NCBI GenBank assembly: GCA_038046605.1
Contig: JBBSVW010000062.1
Coordinates: forward strand, 1-10,016
Direction: 5' to 3'
Origin: Candidatus Micrarchaeota archaeon
GTDB taxonomy: Archaea; Micrarchaeota; Micrarchaeia; Norongarragalinales; SBBD01
Length of the DNA: 10,016 nucleotides
In this document: in pieces, positions 1 through 4,130 of the stretch
How the letters are laid out: every line of letters starts with the position of its first letter
Position numbering within the stretch: the stretch's first letter is position 1
Program-made: the position numbers and the translations under genes
The notes under the pieces: generated by a model
Seen by the model: only the letters and a program-made list of their open reading frames with translations
Database searches by the model: none
Told to the model about the DNA's origin: nothing

Positions 1-70
1 CGGTACTATGCATTTGTATTGTGAAAAAGTGTAACCCAATTATCGTGAACCGCAAATAATCACACCTATC

Positions 71-85
71 CAAAAACCTTATAAA
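71..85 (+). promoter_or_regulatory. Putative archaeal promoter (BRE + TATA box) for the tRNA-Ser/rps13 operon
   Basis: CAAAAACC-TTATAAA: an A-rich BRE-like stretch followed by TTATAAA (79-85), upstream of tRNA-Ser. Motif match by eye only. Confidence 0.55.
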
Positions 86-144
86 CCTGTTTTGCAACAA
101 ATGTAGCCTACGAACATATCGATTTTCTGATACGCAAGACAAAG

Positions 145-246
145 TGCCTTTCTTTTTTCCGAGGGGCTTTTATCTTCCTTGAAGAGCCGTAAAGCTCTTT
201 GAGGCCATGCAGAACTTTGTTCTGCTTGGTCGCGAAAGAAAAAAGG
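145..246 (-). repeat. Palindromic MITE/REP-like element, copy 1 (upstream of tRNA-Ser)
   Basis: Imperfect terminal inverted repeats (CCTTTCTTTTTTC 147-159 / GAAAGAAAAAAGG 234-246) enclose two hairpins: TTGAAGAGC-cgtaaa-GCTCTTTGA (179-202) and GGCCA-t-GCAGAAC-ttt-GTTCTGC-t-TGGTC (203-231). The reverse complement aligns with 3487-3567. Confidence 0.65.
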
Positions 247-286
247 TTGTGCCGGGATGGCTGAGCGGTCAAGGCGCCAGCCTGGA

Positions 287-325
287 AGCTTTCTTCCTAA
301 ATTGTTTAGGCAGAAAATACAGGGA
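287..325 (+). other. tRNA-Ser anticodon-loop intron, 39 nt (36/37 or 37/38; boundary can slide)
   Basis: Internal hairpin TTTCT-t-CCTAAA-ttg-TTTAGG-c-AGAAA. The best 4-bp central helix is CCTG(281-284)/CAGG(320-323) with GAA bulges, which gives 36/37. A GGAA direct repeat makes 288-326 (37/38) yield the same mature tRNA. Confidence 0.8.
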
Positions 326-358
326 AAGCTGGTTCTCGAAAGGGATCCTGGGTTCGAA

Positions 359-458
359 TTCCTCCGCACGGAGGTTGCCTAACGAACTTCTTTTGGAATG
401 TGTAGATTCCAGAAAATTTTTGTTGCATTCATTTTGGGCGCCGTGCAAGGGACGAATA
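359..458 (+). other. tRNA-Ser T-loop intron at 59/60, 100 nt
   Basis: Strict bulge-helix-bulge: T stem as outer helix, central helix TTCG(353-356)/CGAA(453-456), bulges AAT(357-359) and TAT(457-459), inner helix TCCT/GGGA followed by GCACGG/CCGTGC. Confidence 0.9.
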
Positions 459-497
459 TCCCAGTCCCGGCGCTTTTATTTACGTCAAGTGGATTTG

Positions 498-1292
498 ATG
501 ACAGAGCAAAATCAGCAAAATGCGCATGCAAAGCCCCCTGTAGCGAATGCTAATTCCCAGGGGCAGGCGTCAACCAATGCCCCAAAGCCTCATGTCCAGC
601 CAGCTAATCCCCAGCAGGGCTCGCCAGCACAAAAGCCGCAGGGCGCTCCACAGGGCGGAGCTCCAGCCCAGGGAGGGGCGCAGGCAAAACCATCTTCGGC
701 ACCGGTTCAAAAAGGCGCAATTCCAGCAGGAAAGCCCGGAGCCCCGGCAGCCTACAAGGTCGATGAAAACCCAAACTTCAGGGGAATTGTCCGAGTCGTT
801 GGCAAGGATCTGGACGGCCATTTCAATATTTACAAGGCGCTCCTTCGCGTAAAGGGCATAGGCGCAACGCTTGCAAGGACTCTTGAAAAAGTAATCATCA
901 GGGAGATGAAAATCACCAAATCTACGAGGGTCGGGGATCTAACTGAAGAGCAAATCGAGAAAATCGATGAGATTGCTAAGAACCCTTCAGCCCACGGCAT
1001 CAAGTCATTTTTACTAAACAGGCAAAAGGATAGGGAAACCGGGAAAAATTTGCACCTTCTCATGAACGATTTGATCTTTGCCCAAAGGCAGGATATCCAA
1101 ATCGAAAAGGACACCAAAACCTACAAGGGCTGGCGCATGACACTTGGGCAGCGTGTCCGCGGGCAGCACAGCAGGACAACTGGCAGGAGCGGATTCACAG
1201 TCGGGGTCATGAAAAAGGCAATCAAGGATCAGAAGGCGGCGGCGGCTACAAGTGCGCAGGACAAGAGCAAGCCATCTGAGAAGAAGAAATAA
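498..1292 (+). CDS. rps13: 30S ribosomal protein S13 (uS13) with long Q/P/A/G-rich N-terminal extension
   Basis: Archaeal uS13 motifs FRGIVRVVGKDLDG, ALLRVKGIG, FLLNRQKDRETG, TYKGWR..GQRVRGQHSRTTGR. The start was moved from 207 to ATG 498 because the longer ORF runs through tRNA-Ser. Confidence 0.93.
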   Translation: MTEQNQQNAHAKPPVANANSQGQASTNAPKPHVQPANPQQGSPAQKPQGAPQGGAPAQGGAQAKPSSAPVQKGAIPAGKPGAPAAYKVDENPNFRGIVRVVGKDLDGHFNIYKALLRVKGIGATLARTLEKVIIREMKITKSTRVGDLTEEQIEKIDEIAKNPSAHGIKSFLLNRQKDRETGKNLHLLMNDLIFAQRQDIQIEKDTKTYKGWRMTLGQRVRGQHSRTTGRSGFTVGVMKKAIKDQKAAAATSAQDKSKPSEKKK

Positions 1293-1307
1293 TAACTAGG
1301 GATCACG

Positions 1308-1895
1308 ATGGGAGCAAAAAGGCTAAGAAAAACCTACGAAAAGCCAAAGAAGCTGTGGGATAAGACAAGGATCGAAACCGAAAGGAAGCTCAAGGACGAG
1401 TACGGCCTAAAGAACGCAAGGGAAGTTTGGAAGATGCAAACCATCCTAAGGAAGATCCGGCGCGAGGCAAGGAGGCTATTGTCAGGCAAGGGAACCGACA
1501 TTGAAGAGAGGTCCAAGATGCTTATTGCAAGGATCCGGAAATTCCTAATCAAGAAAGAGCAAATCACGCTTGATGATGTTTTGACGCTTACAATCAGGGA
1601 CATTTTGGAGCGCAGGCTCCAGACAATTGTCTACAAGAAGCGCCTGGCAAAAAGCGTTAGGCAAGCAAGGCAGTTCATTGCGCATGGCCATATCGCAGTC
1701 AAGGGGATTAAAATCTCAGCGCCATCCTATTTAGTGAAATTCGACGAGGAGCAAATTGTGGAATGGTACGGGCATGCGCTTGAATCAAACCCCCACGTCG
1801 TGAAAACAAAGGAAAGCAAGGTTGAAGAGCCAATTGGAGCTGGCATTTCAGAACCATCCGAAATTAAGGAAGAACCAAAGGCAAGTGACAATTAA
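1308..1895 (+). CDS. rps4: 30S ribosomal protein S4 (uS4), archaeal type
   Basis: [53 protein letters not shown]; position in the S13-S4-S11-rpoD operon. Confidence 0.96.
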
Positions 1896-1897
1896 CC

Positions 1898-2479
1898 ATG
1901 TCAAACGAAATCAATTCAAAGGTTGCAGCAAAGGAAGGGGCAGCGCCAGTTTCAAGCCCAGCAGCTGCCCCTACAACAGCGCCAGTCGCATCATCTCCTG
2001 CTCCAGCAGCATCACCATCAACAAGTTCTTCACCCCAGCCAGAGCAAAGGAGGTTTGGGAGGGATGATAGGTACGAAAAGAAATACATTTTAAAGGAAGG
2101 CAAATGGGGGGTTGCGCACATCTACTCTTCAAAAAACGACACAATTATCACAATTACGGATTTATCCGGCGCCGAAACTATTTCAAAGGGAAGCGGCGGA
2201 ATGATCGTCAAGAATTCGAGGGAGGAAGGTTCACCCTACGCGGCAATGCAGGCGGCCTTCAAGGCGGCGGAAAAAGCCAAGGAGCGGGGGATTGTTGGAA
2301 TCAACATCCGCGTCAGGGCTCCTGGGGGCCACCACACAAAAACGCCAGGCTCGGGCGCGCAGGCGGCAATTAGGGCTCTAGCCAGATCGGGCCTTCGGAT
2401 TGGCAAAATAGAGGATGTGACGCCGGTGCCAACTGACACCACAAAGCGGCCGGGCGGAAAGAGGGGAAGGAGGGTTTGA
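1898..2479 (+). CDS. rps11: 30S ribosomal protein S11 (uS11) with A/P/S-rich N-terminal extension
   Basis: [72 protein letters not shown]. Confidence 0.96.
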
Positions 2480-2490
2480 GGCGTATAGAT

Positions 2491-3072
2491 ATGCAAATTG
2501 AAATTTTGAAAAACGAAGGGCCCAAATTGGAAGGAAAGGTAAAGGGCGCAAGCGTTGGGATCATGAACGCCCTTAGGAGGGCGGTTATCTCCGATCTTGA
2601 GTCATTTGCAATCGAGGAGGTGGACTTTTACGAAAACAACTCCGCGATGTTCAACGATTACCTTGCAAACAGGCTTGGAATGATCCCCCTCACATTCGAA
2701 AAAAGCGATACGGAAGGGGCGGATATCACACTTGCGCTCAATGCGGAAGGGCCGTGCATGGTTTATTCCCGCGACCTGAAAAGCTCGGATGAAAAGATCC
2801 GTGTTTACAATGACAACGTGCCAATCATCAAGCTTGCGGCAAACCAAAAGCTCCGGCTTGAGGCGCACGCCACAAGGGGTACAATGAAAAAGCATGCGAA
2901 ATTCCAATGCGCAATATTCTCGTACGAATATGATCTTGAAAAGAAAAACCCGGAGTTCGGGTTCTTTGTTGAAAGCTACAACAATTTGACGGGTGAAGAA
3001 CAGCTCATCCGCGCATTGAAATTACTTGGTGAAAAGGCGGAAATGCTATTGAAGGCAAAGGAGCTGAAGTAA
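2491..3072 (+). CDS. rpoD: DNA-directed RNA polymerase subunit D (Rpo3), short form
   Basis: NALRRAVI, FAIEEVDFYENNSAMFNDYLANRLGMIPL, GPCMVYSRDLKS, IIKLAANQKLRLEA..G..KKHAKFQ, FFVES. ATG 2491 was preferred over the TTG at 2476. Confidence 0.93.
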   Translation: MQIEILKNEGPKLEGKVKGASVGIMNALRRAVISDLESFAIEEVDFYENNSAMFNDYLANRLGMIPLTFEKSDTEGADITLALNAEGPCMVYSRDLKSSDEKIRVYNDNVPIIKLAANQKLRLEAHATRGTMKKHAKFQCAIFSYEYDLEKKNPEFGFFVESYNNLTGEEQLIRALKLLGEKAEMLLKAKELK

Positions 3073-3320
3073 TGTTAATACGTGTGATTCCGAACGCAAA
3101 AAAGTTCGGGATTGCCATCAGGGAAGGCAGGATCATTGTGCGGATAAAAGCCGCCGCAAGGGAAAATGCCGCAAACAAGGAATTGCTTACGGAGCTTAGG
3201 GAATTGACAGGGAAAAAAGTCCATCTGCAAAAAGGCGCAAGGGCCCGGAAAAAGGAAATTGTTTTCGAGGGTTTGGCCGATGAGGATGCAATGGTGCTTT
3301 TAAGGAAGGAGGCGGAATAG
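3072..3320 (+). CDS. DUF167 / UPF0235 (YggU-like) family protein
   Basis: IRVIPNAKK, VRIKAAARENAANKEL, GARARKKEI match the DUF167 pattern (V.P.A....V...P..G.AN.EL...G..SR.K). Start overlaps the rpoD stop (TAATG). Confidence 0.75.
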   Translation: MLIRVIPNAKKFGIAIREGRIIVRIKAAARENAANKELLTELRELTGKKVHLQKGARARKKEIVFEGLADEDAMVLLRKEAE

Positions 3321-3379
3321 GAGCCTACCTTCAATAAAGCCTGCAGACATTTATTGCAGGGGTGGCAGAGCCTGGTCAA

Positions 3380-3434
3380 AAAAAATGAAAAGCCGTCCTT
3401 TTAAGAACAGATCGGCTCGATCATTTTTGTCCAA
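3380..3434 (+). other. tRNA-Leu D-loop intron at ~21/22, 55 nt
   Basis: Relaxed BHB: central helix GGTC(3374-3377)/GTCC(3429-3432) with 3 of 4 pairs, AAA bulges, 8-bp inner helix AAAAATGA(3381-3388)/TCATTTTT(3421-3428), then AGCCG/CGGCT. Confidence 0.82.
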
Positions 3435-3480
3435 ATGCGCAGGGTTGAGGTCTCTGTTCCTTAGGGATGCCTGGGTTCAA

Positions 3481-3728
3481 AGGCCTTGCTTTTCTTTTTT
3501 CCGACCGTGCAGAAAAAAATTTCTGCGCGGCCCCAAAGAGCTTCGCTCTTTGCGGAAAAGAAAAGCGATGGCGCCGCAATGCGCTAGAATCGCGAGATTC
3601 TAGGCATGCGCAGAATCCAAAGATTCTGCCGCAAAGAAAAAAGGTTTTGATGCGCGCATCATATGTGTTTCTTTGGCGCGGTGCCGTCCGCACCTTTCTT
3701 TCAAAAGAAAGGGGCAAGGCGCGGATAG
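3481..3728 (+). other. tRNA-Leu T-loop intron at ~58/59, 248 nt, multi-branched
   Basis: Removal restores GGG-TTCAAAT-CCC. Central helix GTTC(3475-3478)/GGAT(3723-3726) with two G-U pairs, bulges AAA and AGA, closing helix GCCTTGC(3483-3489)/GCAAGGC(3714-3720). Confidence 0.78.
3487..3567 (+). repeat. Palindromic MITE/REP-like element, copy 2 (inside the tRNA-Leu intron)
   Basis: Terminal inverted repeats GCTTTTCTTTTttCCG / CGGAAAAGAAAAGC enclose CCGTGCAGAAA-aaaa-TTTCTGCGCGG (3505-3530) and CAAAGAGC-ttc-GCTCTTTG (3534-3552). Confidence 0.65.
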
Positions 3729-3770
3729 ATCCCAGCCCCTGCATAATTTTTGTAATTGGAGAGGATTTGC

Positions 3771-4130
3771 ATGAAACGAGGAAGTGAAATTGGAAGCTTA
3801 AGGAAGCTAATTGTTGATCTCGAGCGCACCGGGAGGAAGGGCAAGGCGCCAATTTGGACAAGGGTTGCATACATGCTCTCGAAGCCAACGCGCCAGCGCT
3901 GCGAAGTCAACCTGAACAAGATTAATTCCGTTACTAACGATGGTGACGTGATTGTCATTCCGGGAAAAGTCCTTGGAATTGGCAAAATAGAAAAGAAGGT
4001 GAAAGTGGCAGCATTCCGCTTCTCCAAATCCGCCATTTCAAAGATGGCTAAAGCTGGTATCGAACATGTTAGCATTGAAAAACTCCTGGCAACAAACGCA
4101 AAGGGCGCAAAAGTGAGGATCATAGTATGA
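3771..4130 (+). CDS. rpl18e: 50S ribosomal protein L18e (eL18)
   Basis: APIWTRVAYMLSKPTRQRCEVNLNKI, VIVIPGKVLGIG, VKVAAFRFSKSAISK. ATG 3771 follows a GGAGAGG ribosome-binding site. Confidence 0.94.
   Translation: MKRGSEIGSLRKLIVDLERTGRKGKAPIWTRVAYMLSKPTRQRCEVNLNKINSVTNDGDVIVIPGKVLGIGKIEKKVKVAAFRFSKSAISKMAKAGIEHVSIEKLLATNAKGAKVRIIV

Follow-up and report, generated by a model that had tools for sequence, protein, structure and literature searches.

A hairpin cassette nested in the loops of a second repeat in tRNA leaders and introns of a Micrarchaeota archaeon

We analysed a 10,016-nucleotide stretch of DNA (the window) that forms the start of contig JBBSVW010000062.1 (C62) in the genome of a Candidatus Micrarchaeota archaeon (GCA_038046605.1; 1.64 Mb, 106 contigs, 90.7% complete). 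Named from their translations, its genes appear to form an archaeal cluster of ribosomal-protein and RNA-polymerase-subunit genes, accompanied by two intron-containing tRNA genes, tRNA-Ser(GGA) and tRNA-Leu(GAG). The subject of this study is a non-coding repeat of ~52 nt – hereafter the cassette – that lies in the 5′ leader of tRNA-Ser and, in the opposite orientation, in the T-loop intron of tRNA-Leu. We refer to the source genome as G000 and to its six congeners as G001–G006; the family comprises 11 genomes in four genera, and 68 genomes of the order were scanned. G005 is the closest relative recovered and gave the best matches to the window. Neither ARAGORN at default settings nor Rfam, whether at its gathering thresholds or at E ≤ 1 (the latter over window 1–4000), detected a tRNA or any other RNA family here, and standard tRNA finders overlook such intron-laden genes altogether. 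Both tRNA genes were read by hand and then compared with their orthologues.

The tRNA-Ser gene (251–472, plus strand) has exons conserved in all 11 family genomes and is interrupted by a 39-nt intron at position 37/38 (288–326) and by a T-loop intron of ~100 nt (~359–458). The latter is present and partly conserved, including a GGAATG...ATTCC hairpin, in all 10 genomes with a full gene (four genera), and is much older than the repeat-built introns described below. A TATA-like box, CTTATAAACC, lies upstream at 78–87 and is conserved in 6/6 genus genomes with sequence there. We infer that this box is the promoter of pre-tRNA-Ser, and positions 146–246 would therefore lie inside a transcribed 5′ leader of ~140 nt. 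In the other three genera of the family an A/T box sits ~35 nt from tRNA-Ser and the leader repeat is absent.

On the plus strand, this leader reads as a polypyrimidine tract (Y1, 146–160), a partly decayed polypyrimidine arm (Y2, 166–178), the cassette and a polypurine arm (R, 234–246) that ends 4 nt before the 5′ end of tRNA-Ser. The cassette (174–231, minus strand, reverse to tRNA-Ser) is delimited by a profile match, by alignment and by the folding of both its hairpins: hairpin A (181–199), a GGCC linker (200–207) and hairpin B (203–231). The tracts on either side belong to a second repeat, which we call the host unit, and were assigned with the help of orthologues: Y2 aligns with the purine-pairing arm of the empty leaders in G002, G003, G004 and G006, and the layout of Y1 as a mirror of Y2 follows the G002 orthologue (Y1 = T3-C-T6, Y2 = T6-C-T3, purine arm = A3-G-A6). 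By this comparison the Watson–Crick partner of the purine tract 234–246 is 166–178, and 146–160 is a third, mirror tract; RNAfold, unlike the orthologue-based pairing, joins 146–160 to 234–246 in the window copy. The predicted fold of the leader has a z score of –4.8.

The very start of the window, positions 1–54, is the end of a multi-copy repeat that is identical at five contig ends (C62, C64, C9, C75 and C2) and has a depth of 52 versus 5.4 in a second sample; it is probably an insertion sequence abutting the tRNA-Ser promoter region. Downstream of tRNA-Ser, at ~496–1292, lies an S13-like gene that, as read from the sequence, has an apparent long N-terminal extension rich in Gln, Ala, Pro and Gly.

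The tRNA-Leu gene (3356–3743, plus strand) carries a D-loop intron (~3380–3434) and a T-loop intron of 248 nt (3482–3729). Joining the exons restores both the T loop and the D loop, and uninterrupted orthologues are found for tRNA-Leu (G008 and G010) as well as for two tRNAs that recur below, tRNA-Phe (G001, G003 and G006) and tRNA-Pro (G001 and G002). The T-loop intron opens with a half-helix, GCCTTGC, that closes the intron by pairing with 3714–3720, and continues into the polypyrimidine arm of a 5′ host unit (3483–3503 together). Then come the second copy of the cassette, in forward orientation (3504–3555; hairpin B 3504–3530, hairpin A 3531–3555), and a segment (3553–3577) made up of the polypurine arm of the same host unit (3553–3566) and a GC-rich spacer (3567–3577). 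A second, unrelated double-hairpin cassette, which we call Y, is nested further on (3580–3629) and is absent from the G005 orthologue; it is followed by the third (purine) tract of the 5′ host unit (3633–3644), whose mirror relation was tested in the G005 orthologue. The intron ends on a 3′ host unit without a cassette (3667–3720), composed of Y1 (3667–3676), a spacer (3677–3692), Y2 (3693–3701), a loop (3702–3704), R (3705–3714) and the closing GCAAGGC (3714–3720); all of these features are given on the plus strand.

The terminal 16-mer of this 3′ host unit (3705–3720) recurs with at most one substitution at 15 sites in the genome, 10 of which are followed by a tRNA 3′ exon 4–8 nt onward, and it is matched in 6/6 congeners. 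The T-loop intron as a whole has a predicted fold of –127 kcal/mol (z = –7.7) with a closed multi-branch structure. In this model, the closing helix carries a 3 × 5-nt internal loop beside the T stem, which would make it a relaxed, not a strict, bulge-helix-bulge (BHB) motif.

Other insertions in tRNA-Leu have distributions of their own. Its D-loop intron is conserved in genera g1 and g3 and absent in G007 (g2), and in G008 and G010 an extra intron in the variable-arm region is found in place of the T-loop intron. In the window, cassette Y is flanked by the direct repeat GCCGCAA, and its other copies (C60:701–752, C57:6749–6787 and C10:12796–12834) sit in the G5/C5 hairpin loop of another repeat. 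Because this second family also occupies another repeat's hairpin loop, loop-targeted nesting is general in G000.

An earlier note, made from the letters of the window alone, had singled out the two copies of the cassette as one palindromic element. Both strings lie in the window exactly as that note gave them, and the reverse complement of 173–234 aligns over its full length with 3500–3559. The two compensatory stem changes it described are present (CCA/TGG versus CCG/CGG, and GCAGAAC/GTTCTGC versus GCAGAAA/TTTCTGC), as is the similarity between 145–162 and 3487–3504 (17/18 identical, with a 14-nt exact run included). These last stretches, taken in the note for inverted repeats bounding the element itself, turned out to be arms of the host repeat, a unit that orthologues have in full without the cassette. 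Among the 132 inverted-repeat pairs of the window, 192–221 and 3514–3543 rank first (30 nt, 83% complementary), which alone is weak evidence because 30-nt chance pairs at 73% also occur. A profile hidden Markov model (HMM) trained solely on 9 copies from other genomes, with the window excluded, matched 3502–3558(+) at E = 1.2e-16 and 174–231(–) at E = 6.3e-9. The same HMM gave no other full-length match in the window; its three further rows were weak partial or opposite-strand echoes in the Leu intron (E 0.0002 to 0.46). An independent model thus matches both copies, and the undescribed repeat family postulated in the note is real, with both hairpins kept in either orientation.

We aligned 19 distinct copies of the cassette from seven genomes and one metagenome-assembled genome (MAG). 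The alignment has 21 invariant columns, and in 19/19 copies both hairpins fold, in the order hairpin B, GGCC linker, hairpin A. Standard pairs fill 97.5% of the 285 pair cells, compared with 34–52% paired in slid controls; double-sided changes occur at 5 of the 15 pairs, and the covariation score was reached by 0/500 shuffles. The two hairpins vary differently: 6/8 pairs of hairpin B never change, while 4/7 pairs of hairpin A covary, one of them showing all four Watson–Crick types. One position of hairpin B (10/29) is Watson–Crick in 0/19 copies, being occupied by A.G in seven, T.G in four, A.A in three, G.G in three and G.A in two. Among 365 stem pairs, 230 are G-C, 127 A-T and only 8 G-T; with G-T pairs so rare, either strand can form the stems equally well. 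In hairpin B the loop reads AAA in one orientation and TTT in the other, so copies of opposite orientation are genuinely inverted and have not simply exchanged their two hairpins. The cassette has no terminal inverted repeats of its own; its palindromes are near-terminal, and it is too short to code. On its left side, where an IS200/IS605-derived element would have a conserved target oligonucleotide of 4–6 nt, the flanking sequence is T-rich and in many copies ends in RA before ACCG, with no fixed word, and the exact cassette boundary is uncertain. K-turns combine a 3-nt bulge with tandem G.A pairs. A K-turn or C/D-box reading of the hairpins was dropped on inspection by eye, hairpin B having a 1 × 1 mismatch and not a K-turn bulge.

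The further copies on which the proposal depended do exist. The HMM, built from other genomes, and the cassette pattern both gave 10 full copies in G000 (HMM E 4e-17 to 1.5e-5), to which one partial copy can be added. Five lie in T-loop introns – tRNA-Leu(GAG) in the window, tRNA-Lys(TTT) on C79, tRNA-Pro(GGG) on C106, tRNA-Phe(GAA) on C30 and an unnamed tRNA on C27 – and one in the tRNA-Ser leader in the window. Another two are in trailers just 3′ of the genes for tRNA-Val(GAC) on C89 and tRNA-Lys(CTT) on C57, and two are beside protein genes, on C16 and at C79:7874. Degenerate relatives of the cassette were found at C93 and C70. The association with tRNA leaders and introns that the note had anticipated thus holds for 8/10 copies, trailers included, and these occupy parts that, judging from gene structure, would be removed by RNase P or the splicing endonuclease. 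Relative to tRNA sense, three of the G000 copies are forward and five reverse; relative to the host unit, 8 are forward and 10 reverse among 18 units whose flanks were read by eye.

Among the congeners, the cassette pattern has 5 matches in G006, 1 each in G001, G002, G004 and G005, and 0 in G003. It has 2 matches in the other 61 genomes of the order, and a reversed-pattern control gave 3 matches in all 68 genomes. These copy numbers agree with a recent burst of proliferation in the G000 lineage. The 17-letter form of the pattern, CTGCNCGGCCCCRAAGA, matched at least 119 stretches in a wider contig collection; the two that were examined are one true copy, from a MAG titled Candidatus Micrarchaeota archaeon, and one chance match, and going by their bacterial titles we take the remaining stretches to be chance matches as well.

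We also observed host units at the starts of protein genes. At C16:6140–6290 and C93:9300–9480, a host unit and cassette lie between two copies of a ribosome-binding region, start codon and first 7–10 codons. The duplicated gene starts differ only synonymously (6/10 codons on C93 and 1/7 on C16), with no non-synonymous differences.

The host unit is an A/T-rich polypyrimidine/polypurine hairpin accompanied, 7–19 nt away, by a third tract, which mirrors the adjacent arm and is neither a direct nor an inverted copy of it. We examined this relation in 311 de-duplicated hairpins with an asymmetric core, taken from G000 and from 96 loci of relatives. An exact mirror alone was present at 39 hairpins, a direct copy alone at 4 (all outside the family, with long loops) and both at 8, against a mean of 9.0 and a maximum of 19 for permuted flanks in 1000 trials; 14 distinct cores are mirrored, which is the fairer figure, since related copies inflate the independence of the 39. 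This layout is the sequence signature of an intrastrand triplex, a structure that is itself predicted.

The host family was found in 6/6 congeners, in 9/10 family genomes and in 3/30 genomes from ten other families of the order. At least 10 tRNAs have its units in their T-loop introns; one D-loop intron (tRNA-Gly, C106) and one anticodon-loop intron (C23) contain them too, and they also occur in leaders and trailers. We observed mirror-tract hairpins filling further anticodon-loop (mostly 37/38) and D-loop introns, in tRNA-Arg on C4, tRNA-Leu(TAA) on C23, tRNA-Leu(CAA) on C43, tRNA-Arg(CCT) on C55, tRNA-Glu(CTC) on C73 and tRNA-Lys(CTT) on C57; nearly the whole intron load of G000 is therefore built from one kind of repeat.

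In tRNA sense, units by 5′ splice sites read pyrimidine-purine-purine and those by 3′ splice sites pyrimidine-pyrimidine-purine. An RNA triple helix as the general explanation of the host unit was rejected on the strength of the 5′-splice-site units. Because RNA, according to Holder et al. 2015 (PMC4666352), does not form purine-motif triplexes, a property of the DNA is the more economical reading of host units. An RNA triple helix is possible for those units that read Y1-Y2-R in sense, and in the tRNA-Ser leader the three tracts could, by analogy, fold into a U.A-U RNA triple helix whose end would lie 4 nt upstream of the RNase P site. The 3′-end triple helix of MALAT1, which precedes its tRNA-like mascRNA, is the case on which we draw for this comparison.

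The cassette can be set against orthologous sites that lack it, a comparison the earlier note had suggested, at four loci: the tRNA-Ser leader and the T-loop introns of tRNA-Leu, tRNA-Phe and tRNA-Pro. For tRNA-Leu, G005 has a collinear T-loop intron with the same host arms, a 5-nt loop (ATAAA) in the cassette's place and no cassette Y; the hairpin is empty too in G002, G003, G004 and G006, and G008 and G010 have no T-loop intron. For tRNA-Phe, the same intron in G005 holds a 2-nt loop instead of the cassette, and G001, G003 and G006 are without a T-loop intron. For tRNA-Pro, the loop in G005 is 3 nt long; G001 and G002 lack the intron, and G003, G004 and G006 have a different intron elsewhere in the gene. 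At the tRNA-Ser leader, the G002 sequence equals the window minus the hairpins, with a few Y2 substitutions, and G003, G004 and G006 are empty as well. G005 carries in this leader a different two-hairpin cassette with the same GCGGCC linker and the same A-type hairpin, in opposite orientation. Since the more distant congeners are also empty or without the intron, the ancestral state is the empty one. Between the filled and empty members of all four pairs, the host arms have hardly changed. We looked for target-site duplications at these four pairs and found none, the junctions being loop replacements.

The composite structure is thus two nested repeats, a guest cassette in the apical loop of a host hairpin, in either orientation. 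The existence of the family, its hairpin structure, its niche, its presence and absence at orthologous sites and its two orientations are matters of observation; the DNA-level mechanism of insertion and the harmlessness of the cassette are what we infer from them. On balance, the explanation we lean towards, with somewhat better than even confidence, is that the cassette is a small non-autonomous mobile repeat that targets hairpin loops at the DNA level and is tolerated because it is excised from pre-tRNAs. Under this explanation, the cassette would be placed precisely into the single-stranded tip of an extruded host hairpin, insertion would proceed without target duplication and leave the host arms intact, and the element would have proliferated recently in the G000 lineage. 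Tolerance would follow because RNase P or the splicing endonuclease removes the niche and because the cassette, folding on itself, spares the structure of the splice site. As to how insertion might work, an enzyme acting in trans on hairpin DNA, as for the PATE or SMR-A elements discussed below, is plausible by analogy, at a little under even chances; template switching or ectopic conversion between host units, at forks stalled by a triplex or hairpin, seems rather unlikely. Gene conversion as the sole mechanism is weakened by the unchanged host arms.

The earlier note had called the element MITE- or REP-like and had suggested that a transposase flanked by the same ends might be found. The repeat family and its two orientations are confirmed; own terminal inverted repeats, target-site duplication and a matching IS200/IS605 or RAYT-like gene do not form part of the picture. 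In particular, no IS200/IS605 or RAYT-like gene accompanied by cassette hairpins was found in the genomes searched. With bounding arms that belong to the host, no target-site duplication and no matching transposase, the cassette is, strictly speaking, neither a MITE nor a REP.

Several observations weigh against a mobile repeat. G000 has a single Y1 transposase gene (C9:24297–24650), flanked by unrelated GC-rich hairpins, and no TnpB-like gene was found in this genome. Across the family, a Y1 gene is present in 5/11 genomes and a TnpB-like match in 2/11, giving 8 loci, 6 of them Y1; a cassette-like hairpin lay within ~1.5 kb of 0/8 (nhmmer with four cassette profiles, E ≤ 10), and a link to IS200/IS605 is rejected for the genomes searched. 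No Y1 gene was found in the cassette-bearing G001, G002, G005 and G006 (84–91% complete). The family genomes searched are 68–97% complete and many insertion sequences in them are unassembled, so these absences are not proof; insertion sequences may be missing from the assembly because it is broken by at least eight families of repeated, multi-copy contig ends, one of which is window 1–54. Metagenome contigs from four DNA runs, compared with window positions 1–4000, showed neither excision nor polymorphism and contained no joint that skips either cassette, although contigs hide rare variants and are therefore uninformative on mobility. The second sample of the same study has identical sequence over 26–1327 and 3527–3734, and a run from another study over 3529–3753; the sole contig joint near tRNA-Leu (3383–3426) comes from a paralogue of this gene. 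In the tRNA-Val trailer, G000 and G006 have cassette copies that match at 49/50 positions, although the ribosomal-protein DNA of the two genomes is 65–74% identical, and a compensatory change is kept between the C27 copy and its G002 orthologue. Such conserved old copies suggest selection on the element itself, which fits a host function. Finally, an unrelated repeat found at the 3′ ends of both tRNA and protein genes contains the stem of hairpin B (GCAGAC/GTCTGC) as well, which could represent a shared host protein-binding site.

This last repeat, of ~120 nt, lies directly 3′ of tRNA genes and protein stop codons (C4:17740–17860, C56:230–330, C57:6740–6880, C65:4760–4860 and others) and holds TGACACC, a G5-loop-C5 hairpin, CACGTGCCAC, the GCAGAC/GTCTGC hairpin and one more hairpin. 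This repeat could serve in termination or in 3′ processing, or be another mobile repeat. On C9, we also observed an open reading frame directly upstream of tRNA-Ile and beside the only Y1 transposase gene of G000 (23330–24100, minus strand), with motifs that, by eye, we take to be LAGLIDADG-like.

These points bear most directly on the possibility that the cassette is a host-selected module, recruited for its usefulness, whose hairpins help to process, stabilise or terminate pre-tRNA, either as RNA or as operator-like DNA palindromes. The 98% identity of the orthologous trailer copies and the retained compensatory change are what such a module would predict, as are the invariant stem of hairpin B, with one position that is always non-Watson–Crick as in a protein recognition site, its reappearance in the 3′-end repeat and the fact that all copies lie in or beside transcribed regions. 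Yet the cassette is dispensable, the same tRNA genes lacking it at three loci in the closest relative, and it stands in both orientations to transcription (3 versus 5), even at one orthologous site (the Ser leader of G000 versus G005). Its copy number also varies from 0 to 10 among congeners, and window 1–4000 has no Rfam match at E ≤ 1. We regard a host-selected module as unlikely; the conserved copies, the compensatory change and the recurring stem fit a factor that reads hairpin B, be it a mobilising enzyme or a host protein.

A history of copying without any dedicated enzyme seems to us improbable to a similar degree. Replication would stall at triplex or hairpin host units, and the nascent strand would switch to a filled host unit, copy its loop and switch back, with inversion by recombination across the arms. 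Confinement of the cassette to one structural niche with similar arms between units speaks for this, as does the failure to find target duplication, terminal repeat and transposase alike; the inverted flanking arms offer a simple inversion route, and motifs of the intrastrand triplex type stop polymerases in vitro and have been associated with instability of genomes (PMC4666352). The arms beside new insertions, however, are unchanged relative to the empty orthologue even though those of potential donors differ, they measure only 9–15 nt, and the same cassette ends occur in unrelated hosts, which looks like a defined element boundary. Chance resemblance between hairpin-rich, low-complexity stretches has next to no probability: polypyrimidine and polypurine tracts are common in G000 tRNA introns and short palindromes match easily, but it is refuted by the independent profile (E 1e-16 and 6e-9), by 19 distinct copies with 21 invariant columns and by a control pattern with 3 matches in 68 genomes against 10 for the cassette in G000 alone.

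The host units themselves appear to create introns, and tRNA-Lys(TTT) offers a view of how this may happen. In G001, G004 and G006, an intact gene is followed by its trailer. In G002 (locus L237), the intact gene and trailer are followed by a host unit, after which the last 16 nt of the tRNA appear a second time. In G000, the gene is interrupted by a T-loop intron, with the trailer repeat at its start and a cassette-holding host unit at its end, just before the 3′ exon. The duplicated state (last 16–18 nt) is also seen in three G000 genes, tRNA-Val(GAC) at C89:36700–36915, tRNA-Lys(CTT) at C57:10070–10245 and tRNA-Ile(GAT) at C9:22985–23190. This series suggests that a T-loop intron is born when the 3′ exon is duplicated downstream of the gene and its proximal copy is then lost, whereby the old trailer would become the intron.

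One tRNA gene is thus caught in three states – intact with its trailer, with a duplicated 3′ exon, and with a T-loop intron containing the former trailer – and a single genus provides dated, site-by-site snapshots in which an intron is absent, present and then, in closest relatives, enlarged by a 52-nt cassette. Intron growth by nested non-coding repeats becomes directly testable, and non-B DNA motifs, in the form of intrastrand triplex signatures, become linked to the architecture of archaeal tRNA genes. We tentatively propose, as a possibility well short of even odds, a class of structure-homing mini-elements in which ~50-nt double-hairpin cassettes, with neither target duplication nor a known transposase, insert into triplex-hairpin loops and, together with their host repeats, form a system for the birth and growth of tRNA introns. 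On the origin of tRNA introns in Asgard archaea, a 2026 census (bioRxiv 10.64898/2026.10.13.758758) concludes that 'how they arrive remains open'. Among the matches listed in a search of the literature outside subscription journals, none dealt with repeat cassettes or with repeats of the triplex type in the tRNA introns of archaea. We take the cassette and the empty sites to be new.

The nearest described elements are the PATE and SMR-A elements of Haloquadratum walsbyi (Dyall-Smith et al. 2011, PMC3119063). According to that paper, PATEs are terminal-only derivatives of IS605-type transposons with near-terminal palindromes, no terminal inverted repeats and no target duplication, some of them 52 bp long, and the palindromes of other repeats serve as insertion sites for SMR-A elements, by an unknown mechanism. 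Like these, the cassette is transposase-free, tens of base pairs long (up to ~110 bp for the group), palindromic, without target duplication and inserted in a strain-specific manner. It shares the structural characters of PATEs – near-terminal palindromes without terminal inverted repeats or target duplication, in an element too short to code – and its nesting in host hairpin loops follows the same logic as that of SMR-A in palindromes. PATE palindromes look like the termini of IS605-type transposons from the same genome or from related ones; the cassette differs from PATEs in that no such transposon was found in the genomes searched. It differs from SMR-A in that the latter has terminal inverted repeats and in that the host of the cassette is a triplex-type tRNA-gene repeat, not a transposon.

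The host unit, known here from its sequence, has its counterparts elsewhere. It shares its three-tract layout with the intrastrand triplex repeats BoxC, PIT and TMECO (Holder et al. 2015, PMC4666352), a comparison that concerns the host and not the cassette. In the classification of that study, one strand of the unit would be class II (pyrimidine, purine, reverse-Hoogsteen purine) and its complement class IV. Like those repeats, the unit exists in multiple copies, at loci that differ by rearrangement between close relatives; they, in contrast, are G/C-rich, intergenic and bacterial, and the host unit is A/T-rich with one C/G position, archaeal and concentrated at tRNA genes.

Among tRNA introns, the transposed introns of Thermoproteales (Fujishima et al.) offer a parallel: related introns occupy different tRNAs and positions, with gain and loss, and host units do likewise. 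There, however, the whole BHB intron moves, whereas here a sub-element enters loops within introns, leaders and trailers, and also beside protein genes. ARMAN-2 (Candidatus Micrarchaeum, PMC3239211), from the same phylum-level group, has introns at the same T-loop position 59/60 with relaxed bulge-helix-bulge motifs, which are cut by a broad-specificity epsilon-2 splicing endonuclease. Because T-loop introns with relaxed motifs are accommodated as in ARMAN-2, large T-loop insertions can be tolerated; the ARMAN-2 introns described are 13–25 nt long and free of repeat content, compared with the repeat-built introns of 100–250 nt reported here. Lastly, our series of tRNA-Lys states and the three G000 genes with duplicated 3′ exons fit the outline of the mobile-element integration model of tRNA gene disruption by Sugahara et al. 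2012 (PMC3293823), in which duplicated tRNA fragments beside inserted DNA lead to intron gain. In that case the inserted DNA is a 1.8-kb recombinase-encoding element, and in ours it consists of non-coding repeats of 115–200 nt.

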